DNA of 64,000 nt, taken from IMG/VR virus record IMGVR_UViG_3300035181_001203, positions 1 to 64,000 of that record. One strand, given 5' to 3'. The position numbers and the translations under genes are program-made. The notes beneath the pieces were generated by a model. That model had not been told where the DNA came from. It did not search any database and worked only from the letters and a program-made list of their open reading frames with translations. Below, piece by piece: positions 726 through 56,113 of the stretch. Numbering within the stretch: the first letter of the stretch is position 1; every line of letters begins with the position of its first letter. This DNA is from a virus.

Positions 726-1556
726 TTAGACTTGTGCATCTTTTTGAGTTTCTATAAATTGCGATTCCAATTGTTCTTTAGTATAGATAACTGGTTCATC
801 AAAATCTATCTTTGCATTTAAAGTATCAATTAAAGTATCAAGATCTGTTTTACTACCAGCACCCAGTTTGATTAATTTTTCAGAAACATTTACTTGAAAT
901 TTTAACCAATTATTTAATTGAACATTATCTTCTGCCAATAAAGCATCATTAACTTTAATAGAAATAATTTGTAATGCATTATCAATAAGTTTTTTAGGAA
1001 CTATATCTGATATCGTTATGCCTAGTAATACTTTTAATTTATTCCTAGAAGTATTTTTTAGAACTTGTTTTAACAAATTCTTTTCATTAACATCACCTAT
1101 ATAATTATCAATAAAAGATTCTTTATATAAAATTTGTTTATAATTAGAAATACACTCAGTATAGCTATCAATATAAATTATATTGTAGTTATTAAACTCT
1201 CTCATAATGTCAGATTTTCTAAATACACTACTTAAACACATCCCATCTATTTTACGTCTAGTATCTGTATCGAATAATATATCTTGAAAATTATCATCAT
1301 TAAAAACTGAATGCAATCCAGTCAAATTAAATTTACTTAAAAAATACCTAAAATCTGAATCAGTATATGAACCAAGTAGTATTCCTTTTGGAATAGGTTC
1401 TTTAACTAATTCAGATTTTATATATTCAAATGGATCTTCAAAATTAAACTGCACCGACGGAAGATACATTTCAAGCAAATCTCCAAATGTTCCCTTATCG
1501 CATTTGCTAATAGCGGCAAAATAATAAAGTAACTTTTGGAAAGGATATTTTATCAA
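726..1556 (-). CDS. Hypothetical protein
   Basis: 276-aa ORF coupled (ATGA overlap) to the upstream gene; no motif recognised. Confidence 0.6.
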   Translation of the reverse strand: MIKYPFQKLLYYFAAISKCDKGTFGDLLEMYLPSVQFNFEDPFEYIKSELVKEPIPKGILLGSYTDSDFRYFLSKFNLTGLHSVFNDDNFQDILFDTDTRRKIDGMCLSSVFRKSDIMREFNNYNIIYIDSYTECISNYKQILYKESFIDNYIGDVNEKNLLKQVLKNTSRNKLKVLLGITISDIVPKKLIDNALQIISIKVNDALLAEDNVQLNNWLKFQVNVSEKLIKLGAGSKTDLDTLIDTLNAKIDFDEPVIYTKEQLESQFIETQKDAQV

Positions 1557-3319
1557 AGTGAACCAAGATTATAACTAATATTATCCAAAGCAAAAATAGC
1601 TTGGGTTAATTGCGTTTCATCTATATTGAATAAAGTACGATTCATACGTTTAATGATTAATAGTTTACATAGACGATCTAACATTTCATATAGATCAGGA
1701 ATTAAAAGTTTAAATCGTTTAATATTATTATAAGTAACAAGATTTAAACCTAAAGCTAAGTCAATATTAGACTTATCGCCACTTGCTAAAGCTACTTTTA
1801 AAAGATCTGAATCTTCTGTAATTTTATTAATTACTGATGCCATTTTAGTTAATTTTTCATCTTTAACTTCTTCTTTACTTTCTTTTGCATTCCCTTGGAA
1901 AGTATAAACACCATCTTTTTCTGCATTCATTAAAGCATATCTAGCATCATCATGAGATAAGCCACATCTTACTAAAACGACTATTGCATCATTTTTACCT
2001 AAATCTTTTAATTTAGTACTATCAATACCACTAATTCCCGCATCATTAATAGTAAATTTATTATTAAGCTGTTTTGTAATCTTAACTGTCAAACCAGCAT
2101 TTTTAATTACGTCTTCAGGAGTTCTAATCCAATCAGCATGCATATCATCTGGATATACTTTTACTAAATTAGCAAAAGATGAAATTAAATAATTTTTAGG
2201 ATCTAAAGGTATAATTGTTTTAATATCAGAAGAAGTTCTAAGATTAATATTATCAAGAGAATCAGTTAATACGGAATAAATTTTATCTCCACCCATATTG
2301 GATATACTATTAATATAGAATGGACCATAAAAATTATCGCCAATAACAATACCAGCATAATCACCAGCTTTGGCTTGTTCAGTATGAATTTCCATTCCTC
2401 CATCTTGGTTTTCTCTTGCAACTAAAGAACCCATATATCGTGGCAAATATTTACCACATTCTGTTATAATAATATTGCTATCAGTGGAATTATTTTTTTC
2501 GGTTAAAGAAGATAATCTAAAATGATTAAATGAACGAGCTTTAACATACTCTCCATTTATATCAACAAATCCTATTCTATTTTTAGTTTGTTTAAAATTA
2601 TTTTTTAACTCTTTTTTATCTATCTCTAATACAACTTTAGGAGGCATGCTTGAAATAATCATATCTTTATCATACATTAATTTTGTAACAACTTCTTTTC
2701 CAAACTTTTTAGCAAATTCAGATAATTTATATTCTACGTCTGGATTTTTAATATCTCTTACAACTATTGGTTTATTAGAAGAAGCTTCTTTAATAAATAC
2801 TCTAGCTACATACTCTTCGTCATTACTTGGAATATTTCTATTACAAAATTCTTCAATAATTTCAGGGTATTCTTCAGCAATCTTCTGAAGAGTATCTTTA
2901 TGTTTTTCAATAAAATTAATTTTGATATCGCCTGTATCCTCAAAAAGCGATGCCGTTTTAAGAAGTTGTCCCCTTTCAGATTGGGATACAAGTTTAAAAG
3001 GCCACGTTCGTTTTTCTATTAGATTAATGGAATTCTCTGTTAGTGGCAGATACTTCCCATTGTCAATATAAATATCTAATGGATTTAACTCGTATTCATC
3101 AATAATAAAAGGAATACGTTGTGGCTTTCCAATCATAGAGATATAGCCTACGGCATTTCCTTTGATTGGATCAACTTTGGCAAATGTTACATCGCCAACC
3201 AATTTTGAAAGCGTCGGAAATTTGGAAATCAGATGATTTACAATCTGATCACCCCAAGAATTAGAATCCGATGTTAAACGGACACTAGTGTTAACGGAAA
3301 ATAAATCGCTTAATGACAT
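1553..3319 (-). CDS. Putative virion/head protein rich in KxA motifs
   Basis: Likely start ATG 3319 (GGAG upstream). Contains LLKTAS, LQKIAE, FIKEAS, VIKNAG, LTKMAS, LLKVAL. Confidence 0.55.
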   Translation of the reverse strand: MSLSDLFSVNTSVRLTSDSNSWGDQIVNHLISKFPTLSKLVGDVTFAKVDPIKGNAVGYISMIGKPQRIPFIIDEYELNPLDIYIDNGKYLPLTENSINLIEKRTWPFKLVSQSERGQLLKTASLFEDTGDIKINFIEKHKDTLQKIAEEYPEIIEEFCNRNIPSNDEEYVARVFIKEASSNKPIVVRDIKNPDVEYKLSEFAKKFGKEVVTKLMYDKDMIISSMPPKVVLEIDKKELKNNFKQTKNRIGFVDINGEYVKARSFNHFRLSSLTEKNNSTDSNIIITECGKYLPRYMGSLVARENQDGGMEIHTEQAKAGDYAGIVIGDNFYGPFYINSISNMGGDKIYSVLTDSLDNINLRTSSDIKTIIPLDPKNYLISSFANLVKVYPDDMHADWIRTPEDVIKNAGLTVKITKQLNNKFTINDAGISGIDSTKLKDLGKNDAIVVLVRCGLSHDDARYALMNAEKDGVYTFQGNAKESKEEVKDEKLTKMASVINKITEDSDLLKVALASGDKSNIDLALGLNLVTYNNIKRFKLLIPDLYEMLDRLCKLLIIKRMNRTLFNIDETQLTQAIFALDNISYNLGSL

Positions 3320-3493
3320 TCTCTTTAGCTCCAAGAAAAGTCTAAGAGGTTGGGCTACCTGGAATAAACTTTGTTTAAAGAATTGTTTCTCGAAATTAGT
3401 AAATATATTTTTGATAATAAGGATAATTCTATTATTGATGATTTATCTACTAATATTATAATCAGAGTAATAGAATGGTTTGATTAAATGAAC

Positions 3494-3591: not shown

Positions 3592-6500
3592 TCAGTATCT
3601 TCCACCTGGCCCATCCTCTATTTGGCCTGTTACGAAAGACGCAATTGGAGAATATCCATGTATGTCTGAATCGTATCCATAAGTAGCGCCTTCTTGTAAT
3701 CCGCGTTTTAAATAACGATATCCCATATTAGCTAAAAAATCTCTACTTTTTAACGGAGCTTGTTGAACACCCATTAAAGTTCTATCATAAGATATTGGTT
3801 CATGTTTAACTTCAATTTCTTTATGCTTATGTTTAATTGAATTAATCATAGCGGAGTTGACTCTATCTCCAGCTTTATATCCAGCAACATCTTTAGCTAA
3901 CGTCATGCCATAAGATTCTTCTGGAGATAATTTATGAGTTTCATTTGTTTTTTGATTCCAATTATAAATAGATGAAAGTGGTACTATATCATTTTTAACA
4001 AAATGAGTATGAGTTCCTTCATCTTTTACTATTCCAAATCCAGTCATACCTCTTACTACAGTTTCTAAGTTTCGTCTATCTACCTTAATACCAGAATCAT
4101 TATATAATTTGCTAATTGAATTTGTAATTTTTTGAATTCCTTTAATCTCACCTAAGAGTTTAATTGCATCTTTTGGATGTGGAATACCATAATTTAAAAC
4201 ATCACCTATATTAACATGATCGCCAACTTTTACTACTAAATCTCCAGAATGAGGATTAATAAAGTGTTCTACGTTATCAATATCAACGTGCCAACCACCA
4301 GCAGAACCGGGAGTAATTTTAGTTATCTTTCCTGTTTTAGTAGCCATTGTTGCTTTATTTTTAAAAGTCTCAGGAGCTTGTAAAAAGTTCTGTATATGCT
4401 CAAAACCACCAAAAGCACCACCACCACCTGAAGCTGTTCCTCCAGTATGGAATGTTTTCATAGCAGCTTGAGTTAAAGGTTCAATTATAGCTTGACTAGA
4501 TTTAATACCTACATTATCTCCAATAGGAACTAAATTACCAAATTCATCCATTCCATAACATTTTTGACAAATACCATGTGGAGCTTCACAAGTAGCGGGA
4601 GAGCGTACAGTTACTTCATTATATTTCTTTTTAATAGAATCATAATTAGATTTTGTTACTAAAGTTCCATCAGTTAAATATCTACCAATTAAATAAGGAT
4701 CATCAGTTGACATAGGAATTCCATGATGCGTTTTGCAATCATGTTCTGAAATTACAATATTCATAGTTGTATTAACTACTTCTTTATTTAAAGCTCCAGG
4801 TTTAGAAGTCATTAATTGTTTATCTAATGATCCTTTACGAGCAGAATATAAAGTTGTCCAGTAATCTGCAAAAGGCATACCTTGACCATAATTAGAAAGA
4901 ACTGGTCTAAGAATTACCTCACCATTATGGTCCGTCATCATTCCTGGAGCAAAATTAATAGAAGAAACATTATTTGATGAACCCTTACTTCCTGAAACTA
5001 CAATTTTAACAAAATTATTTGAAAGATCATTAAGAGAAGAATCTTTCATTGCCTTATCAGCTTTAAGTAAAGATTCTTTTTTAATTTTATCAGATACATT
5101 AGAATTAAGAATTTTCATAGCACTACTAAAGTGCTTATTAACTTCTTTTGAATTGTCGGGAAGATCAGCTAATGATAATGAGAATCCAGCCTTAGTGCCA
5201 TACTCATCACCTAACTCTTTTAATTTAGTTACTACTTCACTATATTTATCTGGATGCTTTTCAGCTAATGATTCTAATGTTTTTGTAATAGAAGTTTTAT
5301 TAGCTTCTTTTTCTATGTGATTAATATCAGCAGGAAATAATTTATTTATTTCTGCTAATCCTTTAGGTGTTTTAGATAATAAATATAATCCGATAACCGC
5401 TTCTTGATCAGGTGTATAATTAAGTGTACGCGCCCTCGGATTATATAAATTTTTGCTAGGTAATAAAGAGAAAGATTCTTTTCTAGCTTTTTCTGTAGCA
5501 GGAACATGAAGCACAAGAGTATCGCCATCATAATCAAGACTAAATGGCTTAACAATAATTCCAGGGGTTTCAATTGATAATCCTTTAGTTAATGTTGGTT
5601 GAAAAGCCATAATGGAAAATTTATGTAATGATGGAGCCCGATTCATTAATACTGGGCGATCAGACATTGCAGCTTGAACTGCCTTCTTTCCAATTTCAGT
5701 AAAATTATCAATATGTTCTTCAGCTTCTTTATGTTTATATCCTTGATTTATTAATTCTTTAATAGCAAAAGGTTTATAAATTACTTTAGCCATTTTTTCA
5801 GGAATCGCAATTTGATCCATGTTAAGATTATTATTTAGAATTGCAGTTGCTCTACCAGAAAGATCTTGTTGTTTTCTCAATACTTTGCTTTGAAAGAAAC
5901 CGTGCTTAGGACTTGATTGATTTGTAATAATATTAACTACACCCTTAACTTCTTTCATTTCATTCTGTTTTGATATAGGAGTCATTAATCCTTGAATAGC
6001 TCCAAGTGCTTGATATAATGTGTTAGATAATTCTTTTGTTTGTCCAAATTCTTTTATAGCTTCATTTGTTAAACCTAAATCTCTGTATAAATAATTTAAT
6101 GAATGCGTCTGTAAAGCGCCCCCTGGAAGTTCAAATACAGGTCTGAACTGTGGAGGGATAACAGGCACAACTGAAGTAGTATAAGCTTCATCTGGTTTCA
6201 TTTTTAAACTATCTAATGACTTAAAGATTTTTAACTTTTTGAGCATTATATCTTTTTTTGTCTTTGGCGCAGTTTTTATAGCATTTAATAAATTATCTAT
6301 TTGCTCTTTTACATTGATTTCTGATAACATTTTTTTAATTTTTTCATGACCATTATCTTCGTTGATTATATTTTTAAATTCAGAATCTTTTAAGTCAAGA
6401 ATAGTTTTTACAGCACCTTCAAACATAGGATTTACAACTGGATGTACTAATGTAATTTTAGACCACTTTTGTCCATTAGATCCACCAGTTTTTCCAATAT

Positions 6501-9500
6501 CAAATAATCCACCTTTTATTGGTTCTAGATTATGATCAAGCATTCTAAAGTTTTCAATCTCATTATTTCCAGCTAATTTTAAACTATCTTTATCTGTTAA
6601 TGGTGTTAGGATTTTTTTAGATCCATCGTTACGAACATTAACACCAGCAGCATTAAGAAGTCCTTCAAACTTCTTATAAACAAATGGAATTTGAGGTTTT
6701 GGTAATGGCAATCCATTTTGTAAATTTTGCCAGAATTGAGCATTACCATCACCCTTAATGGTTGAAATTTCATTAAGAATTCCTCTTGCTCCATGAGAAA
6801 GCAATCCATAAAGCGTTAATTGATCAATAGCCTTAGAGCCATCATCGCCACCTTTAATTGGTTTATTATCTATATCATATGTGCCAGTATCTCTGGCTGA
6901 TAAGTTCCCTTTTGCTACTTTGAAAAGTTTTTCAACATAAGGCTGTCCTACCATAATCTGACCAAAACTTTTTCCAGTTTTAGGATCAAATAATTCTTCG
7001 GTATCAGAAATATTATGCTTCTTCAATTCTTTTTTTAATTTATCTAATTCGTTGTGTTCAGCAAAGTTTTGAACTACATAAGGACGACCAGTCTTTAATG
7101 CAATTTTACTAGCTGAATTTTCTAGCATCTGTCCTATACTCATACGAGTAATAACGCTTAATGGACTAATAATTACTTCAGTAGATTTTCCATCTTTTGA
7201 TTGTGGCATTTCGTTATCTGGAACTATTGCAGTAATTACGCCTTTATTCCCATGACGTAAAGCGAGTTTATCTCCTGGTAAAGCAGGAGATTCATATTTG
7301 CCATGAATTTTAATATTCTTACTATTATAAACTGCTTTAGTTATTACTCCAGGAACTAATTGATCCCATGTTCTAGAAACATCTTTGTATGGTTGGACTA
7401 AAGATTTATGCAATCTATTTAAAATTAAATCTTCATTTGTTCCAGATGCTTTTTGTAATACTAAAGCATATGGATCACCTGGCTCTAAAATAACATTCTG
7501 TTTTGCGAGTCCATTATCATCAATCTTATCTAATTGTGCTTTTGTATATTTTGTAGGATACATTGAAACAAATTTCTTCTTATCTACAATAATAGAATGA
7601 TCATCTTTTTCAATATAATCTTGATACATATGATTTGAAGTTAATTTTTTTGCTCCAGTTTCAGAAACTACAATACCATCTTCAAAATTTAATCCCTTCC
7701 AAGGCATATATGCTAATCTCATATTAGTGCCTAAAGCCAAAGTACCATTTCTTGTAAAATTAGAGTCAGCAATTACATCGCCATTTTTAAAAGAATCACC
7801 CTTTTTAAGATGCTCAATTTCATGATGCATATATGATTTATTTTGTAGATCATAATTATTAAATAAAGGTAATTGATAAACTTTTCCTGACTTACCCTTA
7901 AAAGTTAAATGTGATTTTGAAATATCTTCGATTACTCCATCTTCAGGAGCTATCAATGTAATATCATGAGCAGAACCAAAATAATGTTCTACAGTTTGAT
8001 TTTTTTCTATTGGAGATTGTATTTGGACTAATGGAGCTTCACGATGTTTTAAAGAAATAGCTTGGGTAATATGTCTAGAAGCCATACCTGCTCTATTACC
8101 CTGATTATAATTTAATGACGGTAAAGCCTGTGATGACATTGTGAAAGCAGCATGACTAGAAGGAAGTTGATGGGTAATATTTGATGCATTAGTTTCAATT
8201 TGTTTACCTTCTTTAATTGCAGTTACGTTACCTTTTAATACTTGATCTGGTAAAGCAATAGTATGATGATAAGCATCAATAGCACTTACATATTCAGTTT
8301 TCCCAGTTTTAACATTTTTTAATTTAGTTTCTAAATCATTGCCTGCTTTTCTAGTATTAACTGTTAAGTTTAATGTTACACCAATCTTTTTAGACTCTGG
8401 AGTATTAATAGGATCTAAAAACCCTAAATGAGTTGGATGTAATGCCTGTGAATCAGCCATGATTGATTCAGCATTTTCAATACCACCTTCACCAGTAATT
8501 GTAGTTTTATAACTAGCATTAATAATTGATAATGGATTAATTTGTGAAGGGATTTCAGATAATGCAGCAGAATTAAAGAAAGAAAATATATGCTGATTAA
8601 TATGGCCTGAATGCATAATGTTTTCAAGCTTATCACTTTTCTTCATTTTATTTTCAATATCAAATTGTATTTTTCTACGATTTTTATTTAATCGTTCACC
8701 AATAAAATCTTCTACAGTGTGAATAGTTTTAAATGCTAAAGCATCACGATCATCAGGTTCCTCTAATCCACGAGAAACATTAACAACTTTTTCAAAACCA
8801 CGCAATAAAGCTCTACCATCTAAATGACTAAATTCTTTTCCTAAAGTAATTTTAGTTACTTTAGGATCTAGTTTAGCATTTGATAATTCTGTGGCTAATT
8901 GACTTGAAATCTCTGCATGACTACTTGGAAGCTCAAGTTTTGGATTTACAGATTTAAAGAAACGTTTAATCTCTTCATCTGATTTATTACCTAATATTTT
9001 AATATTAGCGTTATAAACATCTTCACCAAAGGCTTTTTTAATTTCAGTATCATTGATTCCAAGAATTCTTAAAACAGGTATTGCCTTAATATTAGCTTGA
9101 TTAACATTAATTTCAAGTTTTTTAGTTAATGGATCTACAGATAATCTTAAATTTTTAAAACCATTTGGATTTATATGTGCTTCAATCTCACCATTTTGTT
9201 TAATACGAGAATAAATACCAGGGCGTAATCTTAATTGGTTATCAATATTATATTCAGTTCCTTGAACTACATATGTCCCTGAATTAGTCAAAACAGGAAT
9301 AGTTGCAATTTTTTGATGCTTCTTGTCTAAAATATTTCCTTTACTATCTTTAAGAATAACATCACCATATAAATTTATTCCATAAGTTTTATCATGTGCT
9401 TTAGCTTCAGAGATAGCATGATAATTTCTTGGATCTGCTTCATCAAATCCCTTTGTTACGATATTTTTAATTTCTAAAGTTTTTCCTCCAGCTTGGATAG

Positions 9501-9573
9501 GAAAAATATTATTAATATTATTCTCAACTACATTTGCTATTTTCTTGGTTTGCTCAATCGGTGATAATAACAT
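3592..9573 (-). CDS. rpoBC: Multisubunit-type DNA-directed RNA polymerase, fused beta-beta' single polypeptide
   Basis: Beta motifs: HLGFLDPINTPES, AYMPWKGLNFEDGIVVSE, GDKLALRHGNKGVI, RMSIGQMLE. Beta' motifs: PVIPPQFRP, LMNRAPSLHKFSIMAF, catalytic DYDGD, SGSKGS, RSPATC..CQKCYG, EPLTQAAMKTFHTGG. Confidence 0.97.
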   Translation of the reverse strand: MLLSPIEQTKKIANVVENNINNIFPIQAGGKTLEIKNIVTKGFDEADPRNYHAISEAKAHDKTYGINLYGDVILKDSKGNILDKKHQKIATIPVLTNSGTYVVQGTEYNIDNQLRLRPGIYSRIKQNGEIEAHINPNGFKNLRLSVDPLTKKLEINVNQANIKAIPVLRILGINDTEIKKAFGEDVYNANIKILGNKSDEEIKRFFKSVNPKLELPSSHAEISSQLATELSNAKLDPKVTKITLGKEFSHLDGRALLRGFEKVVNVSRGLEEPDDRDALAFKTIHTVEDFIGERLNKNRRKIQFDIENKMKKSDKLENIMHSGHINQHIFSFFNSAALSEIPSQINPLSIINASYKTTITGEGGIENAESIMADSQALHPTHLGFLDPINTPESKKIGVTLNLTVNTRKAGNDLETKLKNVKTGKTEYVSAIDAYHHTIALPDQVLKGNVTAIKEGKQIETNASNITHQLPSSHAAFTMSSQALPSLNYNQGNRAGMASRHITQAISLKHREAPLVQIQSPIEKNQTVEHYFGSAHDITLIAPEDGVIEDISKSHLTFKGKSGKVYQLPLFNNYDLQNKSYMHHEIEHLKKGDSFKNGDVIADSNFTRNGTLALGTNMRLAYMPWKGLNFEDGIVVSETGAKKLTSNHMYQDYIEKDDHSIIVDKKKFVSMYPTKYTKAQLDKIDDNGLAKQNVILEPGDPYALVLQKASGTNEDLILNRLHKSLVQPYKDVSRTWDQLVPGVITKAVYNSKNIKIHGKYESPALPGDKLALRHGNKGVITAIVPDNEMPQSKDGKSTEVIISPLSVITRMSIGQMLENSASKIALKTGRPYVVQNFAEHNELDKLKKELKKHNISDTEELFDPKTGKSFGQIMVGQPYVEKLFKVAKGNLSARDTGTYDIDNKPIKGGDDGSKAIDQLTLYGLLSHGARGILNEISTIKGDGNAQFWQNLQNGLPLPKPQIPFVYKKFEGLLNAAGVNVRNDGSKKILTPLTDKDSLKLAGNNEIENFRMLDHNLEPIKGGLFDIGKTGGSNGQKWSKITLVHPVVNPMFEGAVKTILDLKDSEFKNIINEDNGHEKIKKMLSEINVKEQIDNLLNAIKTAPKTKKDIMLKKLKIFKSLDSLKMKPDEAYTTSVVPVIPPQFRPVFELPGGALQTHSLNYLYRDLGLTNEAIKEFGQTKELSNTLYQALGAIQGLMTPISKQNEMKEVKGVVNIITNQSSPKHGFFQSKVLRKQQDLSGRATAILNNNLNMDQIAIPEKMAKVIYKPFAIKELINQGYKHKEAEEHIDNFTEIGKKAVQAAMSDRPVLMNRAPSLHKFSIMAFQPTLTKGLSIETPGIIVKPFSLDYDGDTLVLHVPATEKARKESFSLLPSKNLYNPRARTLNYTPDQEAVIGLYLLSKTPKGLAEINKLFPADINHIEKEANKTSITKTLESLAEKHPDKYSEVVTKLKELGDEYGTKAGFSLSLADLPDNSKEVNKHFSSAMKILNSNVSDKIKKESLLKADKAMKDSSLNDLSNNFVKIVVSGSKGSSNNVSSINFAPGMMTDHNGEVILRPVLSNYGQGMPFADYWTTLYSARKGSLDKQLMTSKPGALNKEVVNTTMNIVISEHDCKTHHGIPMSTDDPYLIGRYLTDGTLVTKSNYDSIKKKYNEVTVRSPATCEAPHGICQKCYGMDEFGNLVPIGDNVGIKSSQAIIEPLTQAAMKTFHTGGTASGGGGAFGGFEHIQNFLQAPETFKNKATMATKTGKITKITPGSAGGWHVDIDNVEHFINPHSGDLVVKVGDHVNIGDVLNYGIPHPKDAIKLLGEIKGIQKITNSISKLYNDSGIKVDRRNLETVVRGMTGFGIVKDEGTHTHFVKNDIVPLSSIYNWNQKTNETHKLSPEESYGMTLAKDVAGYKAGDRVNSAMINSIKHKHKEIEVKHEPISYDRTLMGVQQAPLKSRDFLANMGYRYLKRGLQEGATYGYDSDIHGYSPIASFVTGQIEDGPGGRY

Positions 9574-9590
9574 TTATACCTCTTACGATA

Positions 9591-9619
9591 ATTCTAACAT
9601 AAACAAAAAAGCCGCACAA
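9591..9619 (-). promoter_or_regulatory. Sigma70-like promoter for RNAP gene
   Basis: TTGTGC-17 nt-TAGAAT with extended TG; the -35 lies inside the upstream terminator hairpin; GAGG RBS follows. Confidence 0.5.
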
Positions 9620-9625
9620 GGCGGC
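9605..9625 (-). terminator. Intrinsic terminator after the MSLIKLA genes
   Basis: GCCGC-CTTGT-GCGGC followed by TTTTTT on the minus strand. Confidence 0.75.
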
Positions 9626-9650
9626 CTTAATGTTAAATATTTTAAGTCTT

Positions 9651-9959
9651 TTACATAAAATATATAGTTGGTGATTGGTCTTTATTTTTATGTTTCACAT
9701 AAGAATAAACTGCACTAGCACCTAACATAGCTCCGCCTACTCCAGCCATACGAGAACCATATCTATGAAGTATTCTTTCTTTATTAAAACCCTTCATATG
9801 ATCTACTGCTTCTTTAGCAGCAAATCCTAATGTTCCACCAGCAACAGCAGCACCAATATTTCTCTTATTAAGAGACTTAGACGAACTACCATCATCATGC
9901 TGATTAACAACTATGATTGGATTACTTTGGAGTTGATAAGCTAATTTAATTAGAGACAC
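9651..9959 (-). CDS. Small glycine-zipper protein with MSLIKLA leader (putative internal virion protein)
   Basis: GTG start, SLIKLA, two GxxxG hydrophobic helices. Confidence 0.65.
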   Translation of the reverse strand: MSLIKLAYQLQSNPIIVVNQHDDGSSSKSLNKRNIGAAVAGGTLGFAAKEAVDHMKGFNKERILHRYGSRMAGVGGAMLGASAVYSYVKHKNKDQSPTIYFM

Positions 9960-9992
9960 AAAATCCCCTACTTTCTAACTGCCCATGCTTAT

Positions 9993-10433
9993 TTATAGTT
10001 TTGCTCCTTTAATTGCCTTATCTATCATATTTTCAACAAGTTTCTGTTGAAGTTTAGGATCTTTAAAATTGTGAGTTCCTACTTCTTTAGCAGACCGATA
10101 TACTTCTGGCATCATTCCAAGATCTACTCTATTAACTCCTGCCGCCATTTTAAATCTTGAGCCAAAACCACCTGGCTTTAAGCCTTGAGCTTTAACTGCT
10201 TTCCCTATTCCATGTGCTTGATACGCTAATGTTCCTGCACCAGCACCAGCCCCACCAATAGTAGCGCCAAGTAATGCGTTACGTAATCTATGATCTTTAT
10301 CTCCAGCCATAGCACCACCAATAGCACCTACACTTGCGCCAATAGCAGTATTGCGAACTAGTTGATTGGCAGCTAACGATTTTCCGGCAGCTACAATGCC
10401 ATGATAAGCCGAAGCAAGTTTAATTAAACTCAT
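9993..10433 (-). CDS. Small glycine-zipper protein with MSLIKLA leader
   Basis: AIGASVGAIGGAMAG and ALLGATIGGAGAGAG. Confidence 0.65.
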   Translation of the reverse strand: MSLIKLASAYHGIVAAGKSLAANQLVRNTAIGASVGAIGGAMAGDKDHRLRNALLGATIGGAGAGAGTLAYQAHGIGKAVKAQGLKPGGFGSRFKMAAGVNRVDLGMMPEVYRSAKEVGTHNFKDPKLQQKLVENMIDKAIKGAKL

Positions 10434-10482
10434 TACTAATCTCCTAGTTCTAAAGCTAATTTCATTGTAGATATATTTATTC

Positions 10483-10872
10483 TTAGTTTACAGCATTTTG
10501 AATTTGCTTACCAAGTTTAGTTCCTTGTTGTCTTAATGAAGCCATTAAATTAGTTCCATAACTAGGTAAGGGAGCAGAAGATTTAGCTGCTGTAGCAATA
10601 GCTTTTTGAGCTACTCCCATTTTATTAGCTCCTTGAATAACATTTTTACCTAGAGTTCCAACACCGCCAGCAAGACCACCAATAGCTCCGCCTTTTAAGG
10701 CTCCAGATAATGTTTCACCAGGTTTAGCAGTTACAGCTCCAGCTAATGCTCCAGTCCCAGCACCAATAGCCGCATTTCTAACTGTTGGGATTGCCATTAA
10801 CTTAGAGCCAACACTTAAAGCTGTATCTAATAATCCAGCATGTTTTTCTAATGCAAGCTTGATTAAGCTCAT
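10483..10872 (-). CDS. Small glycine-zipper protein with MSLIKLA leader
   Basis: Start at 10872 overlaps the baseplate gene stop (TAATG). MSLIKLALEKHAG; AIGAGTGALAGA, GGAIGGLAGG. Confidence 0.65.
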   Translation of the reverse strand: MSLIKLALEKHAGLLDTALSVGSKLMAIPTVRNAAIGAGTGALAGAVTAKPGETLSGALKGGAIGGLAGGVGTLGKNVIQGANKMGVAQKAIATAAKSSAPLPSYGTNLMASLRQQGTKLGKQIQNAVN

Positions 10873-12584
10873 TACCAACTCCCTTTAATAAATGTAATAT
10901 CTGTTGGATTAATAAAATATCTACAAGTCCTATAAGTGGCTGACAAGCCATTCTTAATCTTAGGATAAATTTGTCTAGTTGACAAGTAGCAATTTGATGA
11001 ACCATCAATATTATCAACAACCATTTTAGCAAAACATGGGTATGAAGTTGATGTTTGTACTCCAGTAATTTCACCAGTTGAATCAAATAAATATGGAAGA
11101 TTTGATGATAATGTATTAGTAGGAACAACTACTGGATCAGCCCATAATTCACTAATACGAACAGGAGCATCAAAATCCTTAAGTAAAGTGCTTAATCTAA
11201 TAGGTTCTTGTAGTGACCATCCATTAATCATATTAGCAATATTCGTTGCCCATAGCTGTTCATTAACATAATAATTTTGATCATATACAATAACTAATTG
11301 TTTTACTTGAATAGGAATAAATGATTTAATTAAATTTACAGATGTTATTACTCTTGCATCAGAACCTATAAATGTTTGTATGTCTTCAAAACTATTTAAT
11401 GTATTATAATTAAGAGTAATTACTTCAGTAGCATTAATAGCAGAAGTAGTTAAAACAGTTATTCTTAATGACTCATAAATTGAATAACGATAATTTTTTC
11501 CATATGCTTTTTCTACTGGATCCGGTAAAACTTCAACAATATAATCTACTTCTCCATTTACTTTAGTTTTGAATGTAGTATTTGTTATAGTTGAATTCAT
11601 CCAATCAAAAGAAATAACTGGCATAATTGGTAATGGATTTGCAGATTGTAATTTGGTCCAGGGGAGAAGTGATTGAGCCCCTGGTAACGCAGTATCTACA
11701 GCATTCCAATCAAACCCTTTATATCTACGAAGAGTAAAAGTATAACCAGTACTATCTGCATTTCTAGTTGCTGTGGTTGTAAATGTTGTTGGAATAGATT
11801 CAGTTCTTATATAAATATCTGTCATACCACCAAAATGTCCAGACCATGATTTAGCAGCAACGGCAATATCTCGTTGCATTTCTGGATCACCATATCCAAT
11901 AGATAAACAATCTGTAATGTTTGGATATGCAGTTTTTAAAATAGTATATATTGAATCAGGGCCAACAGCATTACGATTAGTAAGTGATTTTTTAATTGAT
12001 TGAATAAATTCTGCATCTGTTTCTGCTGATAATGGGACAGATGATGATTGTAAATTATTAACACTATTTAATTGTGGATGACTTATACTTGTAGTTTTTA
12101 TTGAATTTGGAGCAACTGGAGTTAATGATAATGAACTAGAACAAATAATAGTCGCAACTCTATAAGTTATTCCTGCTAAAACAACAGTTGGTAATAATTC
12201 ATATGTAAAAAGATAATTCTGTATTGGATAGAATACGGCATTTTGAGAAGTTCTAAATTCATCTGTAGTAGATACTACTAATGGTTCAACTACACCAGCA
12301 ACATTATTTAAATAAATTTGAATAGATATATTAGTTAATGATTGTGTTCGACGTGTTATGAAAAATAATTTTGCAAACTCATCTAATTGAGAACTTGACA
12401 TATTCTCTAATTGCATTGATCGTAAAGTAGTTGCATTAATATCAAATAATGGTTTAGCTAAAACTGAAAATGGCAATATAACCATATTATAAAATGCACT
12501 AGATTCAGACATATCTATATCTGAAAATCTAGGGTCTGCCTGTAATATATCTAAAGAGAATTTAATGATATCTGTGCTATTCAT
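10872..12584 (-). CDS. Baseplate J/gp6-like wedge protein
   Basis: LDEFAKLFFITR, ETDAEFIQSIKKSL, IGYGDPEMQRD and GGMTDIY patterns; next to gp25-like gene. Confidence 0.75.
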   Translation of the reverse strand: MNSTDIIKFSLDILQADPRFSDIDMSESSAFYNMVILPFSVLAKPLFDINATTLRSMQLENMSSSQLDEFAKLFFITRRTQSLTNISIQIYLNNVAGVVEPLVVSTTDEFRTSQNAVFYPIQNYLFTYELLPTVVLAGITYRVATIICSSSLSLTPVAPNSIKTTSISHPQLNSVNNLQSSSVPLSAETDAEFIQSIKKSLTNRNAVGPDSIYTILKTAYPNITDCLSIGYGDPEMQRDIAVAAKSWSGHFGGMTDIYIRTESIPTTFTTTATRNADSTGYTFTLRRYKGFDWNAVDTALPGAQSLLPWTKLQSANPLPIMPVISFDWMNSTITNTTFKTKVNGEVDYIVEVLPDPVEKAYGKNYRYSIYESLRITVLTTSAINATEVITLNYNTLNSFEDIQTFIGSDARVITSVNLIKSFIPIQVKQLVIVYDQNYYVNEQLWATNIANMINGWSLQEPIRLSTLLKDFDAPVRISELWADPVVVPTNTLSSNLPYLFDSTGEITGVQTSTSYPCFAKMVVDNIDGSSNCYLSTRQIYPKIKNGLSATYRTCRYFINPTDITFIKGSW

Positions 12585-12590
12585 TCAATC

Positions 12591-13010
12591 TCACTTTACT
12601 GGTAACTTTATTATTGTGTTACTATTATTTGTAGATACTCTTATTGATAATACTAAAGCTGCATTTGTTTTATCAAATAAAATATCTTTTAATTCTAAAG
12701 TTTTAATTCTATCGTTAGCTGGAATATTATTTACAAGCTCATCTGATTGAATTTTCTTTTTAATTAATAATAAATTACTAGAAAAGATAGCTTTAAAATC
12801 GCTAGATCCTAAAGAATCAAAACTATACTTACCAATAGAAGTTACTTCTCCACCATTGATTGTAGAAAAATAAGTTATTTTGCTTTCAGATAAAATTAAT
12901 GTTTGAACTTTTTGTAATAAATTTTCAAAATTATTATTCATACTGGAAAAATTAATTCCAAAAGAAAGATTGCCATATAAATCTCTAGATGTAAAATTGA
13001 TATCACGCAT
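12591..13010 (-). CDS. Baseplate wedge gp25/W-like protein
   Basis: Size, position before J, C-terminal DRIKTLELKDI...LSIRVST pattern. Confidence 0.55.
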   Translation of the reverse strand: MRDINFTSRDLYGNLSFGINFSSMNNNFENLLQKVQTLILSESKITYFSTINGGEVTSIGKYSFDSLGSSDFKAIFSSNLLLIKKKIQSDELVNNIPANDRIKTLELKDILFDKTNAALVLSIRVSTNNSNTIIKLPVK

Positions 13011-13419
13011 TTGTATTATCTTTTATGAGGGATAATTTTAATTGAAGCTTACTAGAAATACTTCTAATGCTTTGAGACTTTAATTTATTATTAGTTACAG
13101 AAGTAAGCTGATTATCTATTTCGGTATTTTGAGAAGATAAAGAATTTGTCCTAACTGAAATACTTGCAGCATATTCAGTTAAGTAATCTTTTGGTTTCTT
13201 ATAAATTTCAATTAAAGACCTTTTAATAGCAACTTGGTCATAAAATCCATTACTCAATTGAATTAATTGCTCAGAACTAGAAACATTATGCAATGCATTT
13301 AATTCAGTTGATGGATCAATATCTAAAATTAAATTTGGAGCAGAATTATTACCAGTTAAATAATTACTTAACTGTTTTAAGTATTGAATTGAACTATTAG
13401 CATAACTTTTAAATGACAA
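13003..13419 (-). CDS. Hypothetical protein
   Basis: 138-aa ORF overlapping its neighbours in the operon. Confidence 0.6.
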   Translation of the reverse strand: MSFKSYANSSIQYLKQLSNYLTGNNSAPNLILDIDPSTELNALHNVSSSEQLIQLSNGFYDQVAIKRSLIEIYKKPKDYLTEYAASISVRTNSLSSQNTEIDNQLTSVTNNKLKSQSIRSISSKLQLKLSLIKDNTNA

Positions 13420-13786
13420 TTGTAGATACTCCAGTAGATGTATCGCTCAATGCTCTAAGAGAAATCATACTATTTTGTATTGATAAAGTAATTGCATCGC
13501 CCCAAAGTTTAGCTCGTTTTTGTAGATCTGCAAGCTGTAGGGTATCATCTTGAAATAATGCTCTGACAACTCCGACAGTATAAAAAGCAACGGGATCGCC
13601 AGCGGTTACTTTAAATTTGGGATAGGTCAGATCCAGGGGATCACCAAACTGACCTGAAGGATTTATTTCTATATCACCAAATTTTTGAATTAATGCATCA
13701 TCAGCAGCATCCTTGGCGACAAGTCTAATTTCTACGCTAATGCCACCATCAATTAATTTAGTTGTTCTCTGAATTGAGGAAGCCAT
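13409..13786 (-). CDS. Hypothetical (probably structural) protein
   Basis: 125-aa ORF coupled to the sigma gene (TAATG). Confidence 0.6.
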   Translation of the reverse strand: MASSIQRTTKLIDGGISVEIRLVAKDAADDALIQKFGDIEINPSGQFGDPLDLTYPKFKVTAGDPVAFYTVGVVRALFQDDTLQLADLQKRAKLWGDAITLSIQNSMISLRALSDTSTGVSTIVI

Positions 13787-14454
13787 TATTTGAACCTCTT
13801 AGCAAGCGAAGTCTTTAAGCGGGAGACTTCGTATGGTTTCATTTTAAATTTCTTACCAAACTCTTGTGGAGATAAAATTTCCGCACCACCAAAACCAGTT
13901 AATGAATCAAATTGTTTTTGTTCTTTTTTATTCATTTGATTTCTAACGGAAAAAATTCTATCGCTCATTTTACTATCAGTATTAGTTGCATTAGTTTGAA
14001 ATTCTGTATCTGAATCATTAATTAAATCTGCCCTATTGTTATGAATAATACGTTCAATATGACTTTGTGGTAAATGCATATAATCTGATAAATCTTCTAC
14101 TGTAGGTTCTCTTCCTAATTCATCACTTAAGTATGCTTTAGCTTGATTTAATCTGCCTAGCTGTTGTATCTGATGCTCAGGGACGCTACTAGCATTCTGA
14201 TGTAAATAGATAAGTCTAGATAGTTGAGAAATATGATTATATAAGTGAGTATTGATTGCTGCTTTTTCTGGATCAAAGGTTTTGAATGCTTCTAAAGCAT
14301 AATGATTACCATATGTAGTAAGCACCGCATCTGGTATAATTCCTCTCCATTTATTAATATTTGCTTTTATGTATGGAGAATATGCATCGAGCAGAAGTTG
14401 CCCGTTTTCTTTTGTTGGATTTTTTTGGTATTGTAAAATAAGTTCATTTGACAT
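13786..14454 (-). CDS. Phage sigma70-family sigma factor (group 3/FliA-like)
   Basis: Region 2 EAFKTFDPEKAAINTHLY, region 3 LSDELGREPTVEDLSDYM, region 4 HTH LSPQEFGKKFKMKPYEVSRL. Confidence 0.88.
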   Translation of the reverse strand: MSNELILQYQKNPTKENGQLLLDAYSPYIKANINKWRGIIPDAVLTTYGNHYALEAFKTFDPEKAAINTHLYNHISQLSRLIYLHQNASSVPEHQIQQLGRLNQAKAYLSDELGREPTVEDLSDYMHLPQSHIERIIHNNRADLINDSDTEFQTNATNTDSKMSDRIFSVRNQMNKKEQKQFDSLTGFGGAEILSPQEFGKKFKMKPYEVSRLKTSLAKRFK

Positions 14455-14462
14455 ACAACGTA

Positions 14463-14491
14463 ATTATAGCATGATAAAACCTAGCTATCAA
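14463..14491 (-). promoter_or_regulatory. Sigma70-like promoter for the sigma gene (near-leaderless transcript)
   Basis: TTGATA-17 nt-TATAAT with extended TG; ATG lies 8 nt after the -10 and there is no SD. Confidence 0.65.
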
Positions 14492-14495: not shown

Positions 14496-14523
14496 GCAAA
14501 AATATATGGCTTTTTGTTATAAT
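14496..14523 (+). promoter_or_regulatory. Conserved promoter motif GCAA-N15-TGTTATAA (copy 1)
   Basis: GCAAAAATATATGGCTTTTTGTTATAAT followed by GGAGG RBS. Confidence 0.7.
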
Positions 14524-15853: not shown

Positions 15854-15865
15854 AATTTTTCTCAT

Positions 15866-15944: not shown

Positions 15945-16134
15945 ATTTTGCAATTTTGATACCTGAGCGATTGTAACTCCCCACTATAGGGATAATCACT
16001 TAAGCCCATTGCAATATCGCAATAGTTTTCATGCTAACCGTGTATTCAATCGGGAGGATGACATTGGACTTCGAGACTCCAGACTAGATTTGCAAATGCC
16101 ATGCTTTTGGCTGAGTATCAATTTATTGCAAAAT
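15945..16134 (+). ncRNA. Putative structured RNA, ~190 nt
   Basis: Closing stems ATTTTGCAAT/ATTGCAAAAT and TTGATAC/GTATCAA enclose internal hairpins; no ORF. Confidence 0.45.
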
Positions 16135-16155
16135 ACTATATTTATTTGTTATAAT
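16128..16155 (+). promoter_or_regulatory. Conserved promoter motif GCAA-N15-TGTTATAA (copy 2), driving large ncRNA
   Basis: GCAAAATACTATATTTATTTGTTATAAT; no RBS or ORF follows. Confidence 0.7.
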
Positions 16156-19728: not shown

Positions 19729-20262
19729 CTATGATTTTATAAATATCCAGGGGGCACTTAGATAATCGTCAGGTTCTACTAAACAGGCTGGTTTATTAAA
19801 TATAAATCCCATTTTTTCATAAACTAATTGAGTAGATTCTGAACAAATATAAGCATCATTTGATTTAAACCAGATCTTCCATTCTTTATTAAATAATCTA
19901 CCCATTCCATGCTGCAATAATAAATTAAGTATTGTTAAATATCCATACTTTTTACCAACAAAATATGAAGTAGCTGTCTTTAATTTATCTTGTTCTAATG
20001 GAAGTTGAGAATTATTTAATCTAGCAATACCAGCTAAACGAAAATCATCTGCTCTATTATATAACTCTGCTTCTGTCATAGAAAGTATACGAATGCCTTT
20101 AGTACCTGCATCTAAGATGATATGTTTATCACCTTCCTGATTAATATATAAAGCTACATGGGTAATCTTATTCCCAGTTATTAATCTAATAAGTTTTGGA
20201 ATAATATTAGAAAATTTCCATGCTGGGGCTTCATATAATAAAACGTCCCCTGGGTTAAACAT
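19729..20262 (-). CDS. Permuted papain-like NlpC/P60 (YiiX/YebB-type) hydrolase
   Basis: PGDVLL, ITHVALY, GKKYG, YICSE in permuted His-before-Cys order. Confidence 0.8.
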   Translation of the reverse strand: MFNPGDVLLYEAPAWKFSNIIPKLIRLITGNKITHVALYINQEGDKHIILDAGTKGIRILSMTEAELYNRADDFRLAGIARLNNSQLPLEQDKLKTATSYFVGKKYGYLTILNLLLQHGMGRLFNKEWKIWFKSNDAYICSESTQLVYEKMGFIFNKPACLVEPDDYLSAPWIFIKS

Positions 20263-20290: not shown

Positions 20291-20311
20291 ATATATGAAA
20301 GGAGAGCTTAT

Positions 20312-56096: not shown

Positions 56097-56113
56097 CAAT
56101 ATTAGGAGGAACA

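Follow-up and report, generated by a model that had tools for sequence, protein, structure and literature searches.

The locus and its surroundings

The window, meaning the whole 64-kb stretch of DNA that was analysed, is the first part of a 112.6-kb IMG/VR phage contig with a completeness of about 72%. The source is an uncultured large tailed phage. Its nearest isolates are the Salmonella phage Arash and the Vibrio phages D69, D148, and D181, whose polymerases are 31-33% identical to the polymerase described here. The genes around the polymerase gene encode tail fibre, baseplate, portal, DNA polymerase, and sheath proteins. The papers found in the literature hold no biochemical study of this large phage lineage or of any fully fused relative. 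The features of the locus are listed in Table 1.

Table 1. Positions of the features in the window.
Feature	Position	Strand	Basis or remark
593-aa protein, conserved, downstream of polymerase gene	1553..3334	-	neighbour conservation
Single-chain beta-beta' RNA polymerase, 1993 aa	3592..9573	-	ORF list, Pfam, PDB, homologues
Beta part, aa 1 to ~984	6622..9573	-	phmmer and BLASTP against Salmonella RpoB
Beta' part, aa ~985-1993	3595..6621	-	phmmer and BLASTP against Salmonella RpoC
Beta/beta' junction, aa 973-994	6592..6657	-	alignment to RpoB/RpoC
Flap-tip-like helix NEDLILNRLHK, aa 713-723	7405..7437	-	position from alignment
Clamp coiled coil, aa 1159-1190	6004..6099	-	aligns to RpoC 265-305
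Catalytic loop SLDYDGD, aa 1345-1351	5521..5541	-	alignment; three Asp retained
Second beta' zinc site, Cys 1613, 1662, 1669, 1672	4558..4737	-	phmmer alignment
Putative extended -10-like site TGTTAGAAT	9591..9599	-	upstream of polymerase ribosome-binding site; read from sequence
Terminator-like hairpin and T run	9608..9628	-	between 102-aa ORF and polymerase gene
570-aa virion-type protein, sigma operon	10872..12584	-	weak PHROG baseplate-wedge match
Three small ORFs (139, 138, 125 aa)	12591..13786	-	overlap or abut one another and sigma
Sigma-70-family factor, 222 aa, domains 2, 3, 4	13786..14454	-	Pfam, model, Foldseek
Promoter-like site, TTGATA, 17 nt, TG-extended TATAAT	14463..14491	-	just upstream of sigma
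Motif copy 1 (GCAAAA, 13 nt, TGTTATAAT...)	14496..14523	+	directed from sigma toward tRNA genes
Motif copy 2	16128..16155	+	within tRNA cluster
Motif copy 3	20263..20290	+	start of rightward ORF 20261..21838
Motif copy 4	56070..56097	+	head of rightward block from 56114

The sigma ORF is the first of a leftward block, and upstream of it lie a divergent intergenic region and the tRNA cluster. The promoter-like site of sigma ends 8 nt before its ATG, matches the consensus at 11 of 12 positions, which is the best match in the region, and is conserved in the relative L089. The order of the three small ORFs is kept in L089 and in a second relative, L128. The 570-aa protein is homologous to gp13 of Arash, a particle protein (PMC10585845). 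On the other side, the 593-aa protein was found 3' of the polymerase gene in 63 of 80 viral loci (the search also took in three isolate loci); it matched weakly to the Arash particle protein gp218, and fold searches with it gave no match. An earlier note on this DNA had described polymerase and sigma as one module. They do not form one operon, because the polymerase gene is immediately preceded by the hairpin and the putative promoter site.

The fused polymerase

The earlier note had read the 1993-aa ORF as beta followed by beta' with a near-zero linker. This reading was borne out by the ORF itself, by the Pfam order (Rpb2_3 and Rpb2_6 of beta at aa 343-908, then Rpb1_1, 2, 4, and 5 of beta' at aa 1065-1742), and by the alignments to Salmonella RpoB and RpoC. 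PDB beta' chains matched the protein at E 8e-88. The beta part covers RpoB 39-1338 of 1342, the alignment ending at aa 981, and the beta' alignment starts at aa 1065 (RpoC 171) and extends to RpoC 1367. Judged by eye, aa ~985-1064 resemble the first ~170 residues of beta' minus the zinc ribbon; this N-terminal region has shrunk to ~80 residues, and the Cys4 zinc ribbon is gone. The lineage-specific inserts SI1 and SI2 are missing from the beta part and SI3 from the beta' part. The protein is small because these three inserts and the ribbon are absent. The four Cys of the second zinc site are the only ones in the whole protein, and phmmer aligned the stretch that carries them to the Cys-bearing part of Salmonella RpoC, within 780-945.

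The junction peptide quoted earlier was located at aa 973-994. It contains essentially no linker, and all of 18 family members share G977, P991, and D994. In Arash, one aligned segment spans the junction. The C-terminus of beta and the N-terminus of beta' are adjacent in cellular enzymes. The flap-tip helix is retained, as had been noticed. The clamp coiled coil, which had been called shortened, is also retained, its start LNYLYRDL at aa 1159 pairing with LNDLYRRV of RpoC, but it is only about 4 residues shorter than that of RpoC in this alignment. In the catalytic loop, the family shows no variation at D1347, D1349, G1350, and D1351; the majority family loop is NADFDGD, and the usual Asn is missing from this copy. 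Judging from the alignments, the fused protein keeps both double-psi beta-barrel regions, the DxDGD metal site, the stretch that carries bridge helix and trigger loop in RpoC, the flap tip, and the clamp helices.

The fully fused form is common, with more than 100 protein clusters of ~2000 aa, and a single continuous ORF of 1984-2207 aa was present in 73 of the 80 fetched IMG/VR loci. By these sequence comparisons, the fused polymerase is real and under selection. In the phylogenetic tree, 12 bacteria from 6 phyla stood on one side of a branch (SH-aLRT 100), and the fused forms formed one clade with Arash and D69 (support 99). The phylogeny proposed in the earlier note thus placed the enzyme in a phage clade and not among the bacteria. 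All NCBIfam rpoB and rpoC models scored far under their cut-offs on the fused protein, including the Wolbachia-type fused model PRK14844 (377 bits against 4632). A binning error, with an ordinary bacterial rpoB-rpoC region or a fused bacterial rpoBC taken for viral, would account for the general homology only. Against it stand the surrounding phage genes, the separate clade, the 427 bits obtained with the Helicobacter-type fused model PRK09603 (cut-off 5372), and a pattern-seeded scan across the genomes of 185,579 species, in which nothing exceeded 28% identity. We regard the chance of mis-binning as negligible. The enzyme is phage-type and not bacterial rpoBC, as supported in silico.

Comparison with known systems

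The earlier note had compared the locus with phiKZ/AR9, YonO, and crAss gp66; this list missed the closest systems, namely Arash, the mReC lineage described below, and the group of YerA41, GN1, and Carin-5. In Arash, beta and the N-terminal half of beta' form one chain, the C-terminal half forms a second chain, and a sigma is encoded as well (PMC10585845). Arash Gp206 and Gp216 (sigma Gp10, OQ632216) and the enzymes of D69, D148, and D181 belong to the same polymerase clade and are fused likewise at the junction, and this group has a homologous sigma in the same virion-gene context. In these four phages, however, beta' is cut after about aa 1400, close to the border between the cyanobacterial rpoC1 and rpoC2 models, and the rest lies in a second gene 3-5 kb away, whereas here it is one chain. 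The sigma gene of Arash is distant from the polymerase gene.

The multimeric-RNAP-encoding Caudovirales (mReC) of Weinheimer and Aylward 2020 (PMC7481178) are similar by description: metagenomic tailed phages of 100-200 kb, with beta/beta' apart from cellular enzymes and among virion genes. Fusion, sigma, and the lack of alpha are all unmentioned in that paper (PMC7481178), and its filter demanded NADxDGD, which the SLDYDGD of this copy fails. In YerA41 and GN1 (Yersinia) and Carin-5 (Cobetia), beta and beta' are separate genes, unlike here, and the enzymes form a separate long branch in the tree with ~24% identity. The gene upstream of beta/beta' is annotated as sigma in Carin-5; in GN1 the gene at the same position is annotated as hypothetical. 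The phiKZ/AR9 enzymes are also multisubunit-type phage polymerases without alpha or omega, one set of which is in the virion (PMC7598289), but their beta and beta' each consist of several separate chains, with no sigma-70-family factor (PMC7824862), whereas here the chains are fused and a sigma is present. Helicobacter and Wolbachia RpoBC are likewise one chain, joined C-terminus to N-terminus, of ~2850-2890 aa (model lengths 2890 and 2839) as against 1993 aa. These bacterial fusions work with alpha and omega. The crAss-like gp66 and YonO are single-chain two-barrel enzymes from phages or prophages, for which we know of no sigma-70-family factor. They are beyond COG/Pfam detection (PMC7481178), whereas the present protein is plainly bacterial-type.

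The sigma factor and its probable pairing with the polymerase

The 222-aa ORF matched Pfam Sigma70_r3. Of 79 homologues, 77 showed region 3, 20 showed region 4, and 3 showed region 2. The predicted structure (pLDDT 90.5) matched sigma A, S, and B over the full length in Foldseek (E 4e-8), and the protein is 33% identical to Arash gp10. The factor is a divergent three-domain sigma-70-family protein. The earlier note had called it FliA-like; its place at the head of the block and its domains 2, 3, and 4 were upheld. A specifically FliA-like factor was rejected, since FliA_WhiG, whose cut-off is 189.6, gave 20 bits and the RpoD, SigB/F/G, and sigma-28 models scored about the same.

The sigma family was found in 16 of 17 polymerase-bearing genomes, and a search that started from sigma gave a polymerase for 7 of 8 contigs with a completeness of 90% or more. 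The exceptions were two near-complete genomes, one with polymerase and no sigma, the other with sigma and no detectable polymerase. A complex of polymerase aa 640-1270 with sigma was modelled, a check that had been suggested earlier. It scored 0.75, a mark that 58 of 80 solved complexes and 2 of 110 mismatched pairs also attained, whereas the best of three controls scored 0.00. The runs shared at least 83% of contacts, with partner pLDDT of at least 79. Polymerase 711-725, the flap tip, contacted residues of the sigma C-terminal domain. The expected error was lowest for the contacts that clamp 1146-1230 made with sigma 37-51 and 84-95. Bacterial holoenzymes have already been solved, and therefore the high score may be the predictor's memory of those structures; the model shows likeness to holoenzymes rather than binding by this copy.

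Sigma could instead redirect the host RNA polymerase, like T4 gp55 or SPO1 gp28, leaving the phage polymerase to another factor or none. Sigmas for the host core are known from many phages (PMC7824862), the repeated motif of this phage resembles a host-type promoter, and the genome with sigma and no detectable polymerase fits such a role. The tight co-occurrence in both directions, the flap tip and clamp helices kept in the phage core, and the modelled complex, which contained the phage core only, speak against it. We consider this redirection improbable. Sigma may also serve both cores.

Alpha and omega subunits

The absence of alpha and omega, claimed earlier for the window, extends to the rest of the available genome: Pfam found neither alpha (PF01000, PF01193) nor omega (PF01192) in the entire 112.6-kb contig, which is about 72% complete. 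Neither was found in Arash or D69. The alpha N-terminal domain PF01000 was absent from 15 relatives, a set in which 11 genomes have a completeness of 90% or more and 4 have terminal repeats. Across 18 related genomes the Pfam models, which unrecognisable structural equivalents would escape, found no alpha.

The enzyme may be alpha-independent, or the core may recruit the host alpha dimer, perhaps with omega, and function as a chimera of phage and host subunits. Both halves of the fusion are clearly bacterial-type over almost the whole length, and no phage alpha is available as a replacement. Natural bacterial beta-beta' fusions, such as that of Helicobacter, still use alpha. The hosts of the family are very different, however (Salmonella, Vibrio, and, for this phage, a low-G+C host), and therefore one conserved core would need to fit many alphas. 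A particle-borne enzyme would also need host alpha aboard, and phiKZ- and AR9-type phage enzymes function without alpha (PMC7598289). The chimera is unlikely in our view, and we favour alpha independence.

A repeated strand-specific motif

The bipartite motif occurs in 11 copies, all on the plus strand, opposite the polymerase block (shuffles 0.31, maximum 3). It precedes tRNA, small-ORF, and replication genes and not virion genes. In L089 there are two further copies, and the divergent arrangement upstream of sigma is kept. The core TG(G/T)TATAA(G/T) is over-represented in Arash and D69 (shuffles 0.38 and 1.5), and 16 of 16 and 13 of 14 sites, respectively, lie opposite the polymerase gene. 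The motif of these two phages is related to the one here, and their hosts differ (Salmonella and Vibrio). Most of their sites read TATAAG, with G in place of the final T, whereas this phage has TATAAT plus the GCAAAA element. Host sigma-70 needs the final T of TATAAT. In the complete relative G013 (50% identical), no such motif was found. The strand-specific extended -10 motif is a new result of this analysis. We infer that it is a promoter read by the phage holoenzyme; the motif here (TTGCAA-like -35, TG, TATAAT) would also fit the housekeeping sigma of a host, above all a low-G+C one.

Possible virion carriage

In Arash particles, the polymerase chains accounted for the largest number of spectra and sigma was also detected (PMC10585845). 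A sucrose gradient was the only purification of these particles; the proteome covered 116 of 272 proteins, ribonucleotide reductases among them, and its authors consider carry-over possible (PMC10585845). Polymerase subunits and a sigma were likewise associated with YerA41 particles (PMC7354516). In the present phage, the sigma gene overlaps or directly adjoins downstream virion-type genes, including the homologue of Arash gp13. By analogy, the enzyme may travel in the virion together with sigma. Carriage, suggested by the Arash and YerA41 proteomics, was absent from the readings of the earlier note.

The enzyme could also be unpackaged: the genes of polymerase and sigma would first be read by the host enzyme, and the phage holoenzyme would then serve middle or late genes, like the phiKZ non-virion enzyme. 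Both genes have their own host-like promoter site, the YerA41 polymerase genes are early (PMC7354516), and the Arash and YerA41 particle proteomes include many obvious non-structural enzymes. Against this, the genes lie inside the virion-gene block, with sigma joined to virion-type genes, the polymerase had the largest number of spectra in Arash particles, and the repeated motif stands before tRNA, small-ORF, and replication genes rather than virion genes. We regard this course as possible but doubtful.

Proposed mechanism

The two-component holoenzyme of the earlier note was strengthened in silico in several parts: a phage enzyme, co-occurrence with sigma, modelled canonical contacts, and absence of alpha in complete relatives. 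Taken as a whole, the best explanation is probably that the phage polymerase core is a fused beta-beta', partnered by the phage sigma into a holoenzyme of two gene products without phage alpha or omega. The beta C-terminus leads directly into the beta' N-terminus as one catalytic-core polypeptide, and the fusion may do the work of the alpha dimer, the platform on which cellular enzymes assemble. Sigma domain 2 would sit on the clamp helices and domain 4 on the flap tip. As products of the virion-gene block, enzyme and sigma would be synthesised late, and at least a portion of both would be packaged and enter with the DNA. The holoenzyme would then recognise a phage-specific extended -10 class (consensus tGCAAAA, 13 nt, TTTGTTATAATATA), which would drive the tRNA, small-ORF, and replication genes of the opposite strand. 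The phage likely encodes a two-protein transcription machine.

Structure of the fused polymerase

The contig is a linear IMG/VR virus record of 112,653 bp, with an estimated completeness of about 72% and a G+C content of about 32%; its initial 64 kb make up the window. The polymerase neighbourhood consists of phage genes. Tail-fibre, baseplate and decoration-type proteins and an SLT transglycosylase are encoded in the window, and a DNA polymerase, a helicase, a portal and a sheath-like protein are encoded elsewhere on the contig. The polymerase occupies one reading frame. The Pfam domains were arranged in the order beta Rpb2_3 and Rpb2_6 (aa 343-908), then beta' Rpb1_1, 2, 4 and 5 (aa 1065-1742). 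The beta barrel region (PF00562, Rpb2_6) was matched at 7e-46 and the beta' barrel (PF00623) at 5e-21. Both barrels and the DxDGD metal site were present, which places the protein among the two-barrel, multisubunit-type polymerases. Residues D1347, D1349 and D1351 of the metal site showed no variation across the family. The catalytic loop reads SLDYDGD here and NADFDGD in the family majority (50/120 relatives). DxDGD was not recognisable in 9/120 homologues, seven of which were long forms.

The results of the PF04998 match showed that the bridge helix/trigger-loop region and the second zinc site are present, and the alignment to RpoC 688-945 takes in all four cysteines. These are the only cysteines of the polymerase, and most relatives also have exactly four. 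The best match among solved bacterial beta' chains had an E value of 8e-88. Against Salmonella RpoB and RpoC, references that came from a contaminant record, the beta part spans RpoB 39-1338 and ends at aa 981, and the beta' alignment starts at aa 1065, equivalent to RpoC 171. Judged by eye, aa 985-1064 correspond roughly to the first 170 or so beta' residues minus the Cys4 zinc ribbon. The alignment gaps coincide with the positions of the E. coli lineage-specific inserts SI1, SI2 and SI3. The Pfam order and these alignments bear out the earlier note, which had described a single chain of beta followed by beta'; its junction peptide, flap-tip-like helix (aa 713-723) and clamp helices (aa 1159-1190) were confirmed in position. 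No second polymerase paralogue was found in a search of the contig.

Features of the contig and of related phages (L004 is the Salmonella phage Arash; G013 is a complete relative, 50% identical)
Feature	Position	Strand	Remarks
593-aa conserved protein, fold without match	window 1553-3334	-	Downstream of polymerase gene
Fused beta-beta' polymerase	window 3592..9573	-	1993 aa
Terminator-like hairpin	window 9628..9608		Upstream of polymerase gene, together with a TGTTAGAAT site
Small glycine-zipper proteins	window 9993-10433 and 10483-10878; contig 76939-77184	-	Flanking polymerase gene
Sigma factor	window 13786..14454	-	222 aa
Promoter-like site of sigma gene	window 14454-14491	-	Ends 8 nt before ATG
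tRNA cluster	window 14960-18375	+	Six genes: Ser-TGA, Arg-TCT, Leu-TAA, Lys-TTT, Met-CAT, Gln-TTG
Second promoter-like pattern	window 19303-19511 and 56005-56113	-	Two leftward intergenic regions; TTGAC(A/T), then about 17 nt further TTGTGT(C/G)ACA
Arash gp7	L004:7425-8105		226-aa particle protein resembling the Cys-bearing second zinc-site segment of beta'
Tandem array	G013:C1:110100-111300		Units of about 36 bp, each with TGTTACT(T/A)T and GATTCAAT
Long conserved repeat of Arash	26.6, 66.4, 100.2, 138.5 and 173.3 kb		Five facing pairs about 135 bp apart; includes GGTTACAACGTTTG

Relatives and phylogeny of the polymerase

The best phage records were the Vibrio phages D69, D148 and D181 and the Salmonella phage Arash, with about 31-33% identity. 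In these phages, a gene of about 1525 aa encodes beta and the first 420 or so beta' residues, and another gene (about 606 aa), at a distance of 3-5 kb, supplies the remaining beta'. Because the larger gene spans both subunits, the beta/beta' junction is fused in these isolates too. The cut in beta', close to the meeting point of the cyanobacterial rpoC1 and rpoC2 models, is the sole difference from the full fusion. The fully fused form is the commoner one; it accounts for over 100 clusters with lengths around 2000 aa, some enlarged by inteins. Relatives are encoded on more than 572 IMG/VR stretches, and the genomes of the family measure 140-200 kb. Gene neighbourhoods were taken from IMG/VR loci, and 73 of the 80 loci fetched had one ORF of 1984-2207 aa spanning the whole family profile. 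Many metagenomic homologues of 2400-2600 aa (P0036-P0114) carry intein or LAGLIDADG domains, and in the Vibrio phages (L003, D148 and D181) genes for homing endonucleases are found within the polymerase region or close to it. In the more distant phages GN1 and YerA41 (Yersinia) and Carin-5 (Cobetia), beta and beta' are separate genes; the gene directly upstream of them is annotated as a sigma factor in Carin-5.

A maximum likelihood tree (LG+G4, 1994 columns) was built from 34 sequences, either fused or concatenated. A branch with an SH-aLRT of 100 set apart the 12 bacteria, which represent six phyla. Eighteen fused forms, Arash and D69 formed one clade (99), and GN1 and Carin-5 formed a separate long branch. 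The tree is unrooted, was built without Campylobacterota or Wolbachia, and applies a site-homogeneous model to sequences of heterogeneous composition. Nesting inside the bacteria, which the earlier note had named as one outcome that would refute its reading, was not seen among these taxa. The tree agrees with the published analysis of multimeric-RNAP-encoding Caudovirales, or mReC (PMC7481178).

The NCBIfam models for cellular polymerases were not reached: rpoC_TIGR scored 396 against a cut-off of 963.5, rpoB 284 against 801, and the fused PRK09603 427 against 5372. Descent from the fused forms of Helicobacter or Wolbachia was rejected on scores alone, neither group being in the tree. A genome scan for polymerase relatives gave only cellular rpoB/rpoC at 24-28% identity, mostly from Patescibacteria. 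These matches were read as an effect of the compact genes of that group and not as a sign of kinship.

As in mReC, beta and beta' were detectable with cellular models, the contig is of Caudovirales and the polymerase clusters apart from cells (PMC7481178). The mReC inclusion filter NADxDGD would exclude this polymerase because its loop is SLDYDGD; this motif is a filter rather than a biological definition. The phiKZ/AR9 type, in which beta and beta' are each split over several genes and no sigma-70-family factor is present, is unlike the one-ORF polymerase and sigma found here. The splitting of the phiKZ/AR9 polymerases into several chains had been recognised in the earlier note, which overlooked the closest systems, such as mReC and Arash.

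The sigma factor and its probable pairing with the polymerase

The sigma factor passed the Pfam threshold for Sigma70_r3 only, and Sigma70_r2 and Sigma70_r4 had no direct match on the contig. It matched region 2.4-3 of solved RpoD chains. An exhaustive profile search gave 1190 sigma cluster representatives, with full-length alignments for nearly all of them. Of 79 such homologues, 77 had a detectable region 3, 20 a region 4 and three a region 2. A model built from the homologue alignment had a pLDDT of 90.5, and its full-length Foldseek matches were sigma A, S and B in holoenzyme structures. The protein thus belongs to the sigma-70 family, with domains 2, 3 and 4 in order; since the two Pfam models were silent on the contig, domains 2 and 4 are assigned from the homologues and the model. 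The factor had been called FliA-like. FliA/WhiG (sigma-28) scored 20.3 bits against 189.6, RpoD, SigB/F/G and RpoS were similarly weak, and no NCBIfam sigma subfamily came near its own cut-off. By these scores, the label fits the size of the protein, not its kinship.

The sigma profile matched 16 of 17 polymerase-bearing genomes, including 10 of the 11 virus records at least 90% complete. In the reverse direction, a beta barrel was found in a large ORF in seven of the eight sigma-bearing contigs at least 90% complete, and the sigma contigs lacking it were mostly small fragments. The sigma loci for this reverse test were found independently with a 12-sequence alignment, the first alignment being too diverse for a locus scan.

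A complex with sigma was modelled for polymerase residues 640-1270, which take in the flap, the beta C-terminus, the junction and the clamp. It scored 0.75, and the best of three controls scored 0.00. Of 80 solved complexes, 58 attained the mark used, as did 2 of 110 mismatched pairs; between runs, at least 83% of contacts were shared, and partner pLDDT was at least 79. In the model, clamp helices 1146-1230 contact sigma 37-51 and 84-95, flap tip 711-725 contacts the sigma C-terminal domain, and the sigma linker 138-168 runs along polymerase 895-907, 945-952 and 1009-1019. The predicted arrangement is canonical and indicates likeness, not binding. The predicted contacts are those expected from the earlier note, and the pass may be memory on the part of the predictor because bacterial holoenzymes have already been solved.

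Alpha and omega

Cellular RNA polymerases assemble beta and beta' only with an alpha dimer. The Pfam models of the alpha N-terminal domain found none on the contig, and the complete Arash and D69 genomes were likewise negative with the alpha models. PF01000 had no match in 15 further relatives (11 at least 90% complete, four with terminal repeats), so that no alpha gene was found in any of the 18 genomes searched. In the controls, alpha was detected in 14/14 reference genomes. The phage thus encodes no recognisable alpha. Omega was likewise not found on this contig. The absence of both genes from the window, reported earlier, therefore extends by Pfam to the whole contig.

A repeated, putative extended -10 promoter class

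Plain k-mers and an EM finder returned chiefly ribosome-binding sites, AT-rich noise and some 24 sites resembling terminators. The promoter-like motif emerged only by tracing the word TGTTATAA, which is enriched in intergenic DNA. Alignment of its sites gave the consensus tGCAAAA, 13 nt, TTTGTTATAATATAtATGg, and the TGGTATAAGTA sites would be those of an extended -10 promoter class. Eleven copies of the bipartite motif were counted on the contig, every one on the + strand, whereas 0.31 were expected (100 shuffles, maximum 3), and 10 of the 11 were intergenic or at the extreme start of an ORF. Copies lie upstream of the tRNA cluster, of the rightward block from 56114 and of small ORFs before the replication genes; none of the 11 faces the leftward virion/sigma/polymerase block. 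A generic sigma-70 consensus scan showed no enrichment (70 found, 88 expected from shuffles). The tRNA cluster has a G+C content above its surroundings and reads away from sigma, with one motif copy at its head and one inside.

The closest relative, L089, has two motif copies, one of them in the matching divergent position beside sigma. Arash has 16 sites of the type TGGTATAAG(T/A)A, all opposite the polymerase-gene strand (0.38 expected), and D69 has 14 of the type TG(G/T)TATAA(G/T), 13 of them opposite that strand (1.5 expected). The position -7 is G in most Arash and D69 sites and T here. Host sigma-70 requires T, its most conserved base, at this position. The form of the motif in this phage would also fit the housekeeping sigma of the host. 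Because the core is common to Salmonella phage, Vibrio phage and a phage of a low-G+C host, a reader encoded by the phage is suggested, and from the sequences the conserved sigma would be the obvious candidate. This putative promoter class is new in the present analysis.

In G013, no equivalent promoter motif was found. Its repeated words were rejected as promoters; they proved to stem from a family of paralogous proteins with conserved N-termini and from the tandem array near 110-111 kb, which may be an origin-like iteron field. M-I-I-K-L starts ten genes of G013. On our contig, the first and third glycine-zipper genes of the table begin with an identical DNA word encoding M-S-L-I-K-L, and glycine-zipper homologues lie near the polymerase gene in 11 other loci. 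Some 9 nt beyond most of the promoter-like sites of D69 there is a short GGAGA-loop-TCTCC inverted repeat, which would form a hairpin at the 5' end of the transcript. No Shine-Dalgarno sequence is visible before the sigma gene, and the distance from the promoter-like site to the ATG is 6 nt in L089. With the site so near the ATG, the sigma mRNA may be leaderless.

Gene context and possible packaging in the virion

The sigma gene adjoins or overlaps the genes downstream of it, which are three small ORFs and one for a 570-aa protein homologous to Arash gp13. The order in Arash is alike: sigma (gp10), gp11 and gp12, then gp13, which was detected in particles (PMC10585845). The 593-aa protein follows the polymerase gene in 63 of 80 viral loci, which were searched alongside three isolate loci. 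It weakly matches the Arash particle protein gp218, and no match came from Pfam, PHROG, the Atlas or, by fold, the PDB (model pLDDT 66).

The proteome of Arash particles, purified by sucrose gradient, comprised 116 proteins; the polymerase chains ranked first by number of spectra, sigma was among the proteins detected, and carry-over was allowed for by the authors (PMC10585845). Polymerase subunits and a sigma of YerA41 were likewise particle-associated (PMC7354516). Virion-carried phage polymerases, such as those of N4 and the phiKZ virion enzyme, are marked by their presence in purified particles and by early transcription that resists rifampicin. As indirect evidence for this class, the two proteomes and the gene context make packaging of the polymerase and sigma plausible but unproven. 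Arash gp7 matches the beta' segment at 31% identity over 81 residues (E 8e-8, pairwise) and could be a piece of beta' that has strayed into the virion module; a search of this contig gave no counterpart.

Meaning of the fused polymerase and its sigma

The lineage has already been covered by a phylogenetic study (2020) and by two isolate papers with particle proteomes (2020 and 2023). The single-chain form, the sigma pairing, the absence of alpha and the promoter class are unmentioned in these three papers; the mReC paper mentions neither fusion nor sigma (PMC7481178). We found no published paper on the biochemistry or structure of the lineage.

The earlier observation of a fused polymerase with its own sigma and without alpha or omega was right, and the putative two-component holoenzyme drawn from it is reasonable but unproven. 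Our fuller proposal is tentative, and we consider it possible rather than probable. The 226-kDa fusion and the 222-aa sigma would form a minimal two-polypeptide bacterial-type holoenzyme needing no alpha, omega or beta' zinc ribbon. Carried in the particle, it would start infection by reading its own extended -10 class, which a very large lineage of phages with unrelated hosts would have conserved in varying forms.

The family is very common in metagenomes. Since cultured relatives infect Salmonella and Vibrio, the idea is directly testable, and the repeated promoter motifs are ready templates for it. If the fused chain and sigma are a complete enzyme, they would be the simplest bacterial-type transcription machine known. 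They would then offer a tractable two-gene system for structures and for the roles of alpha, omega and the zinc ribbon, with possible use in orthogonal gene expression.
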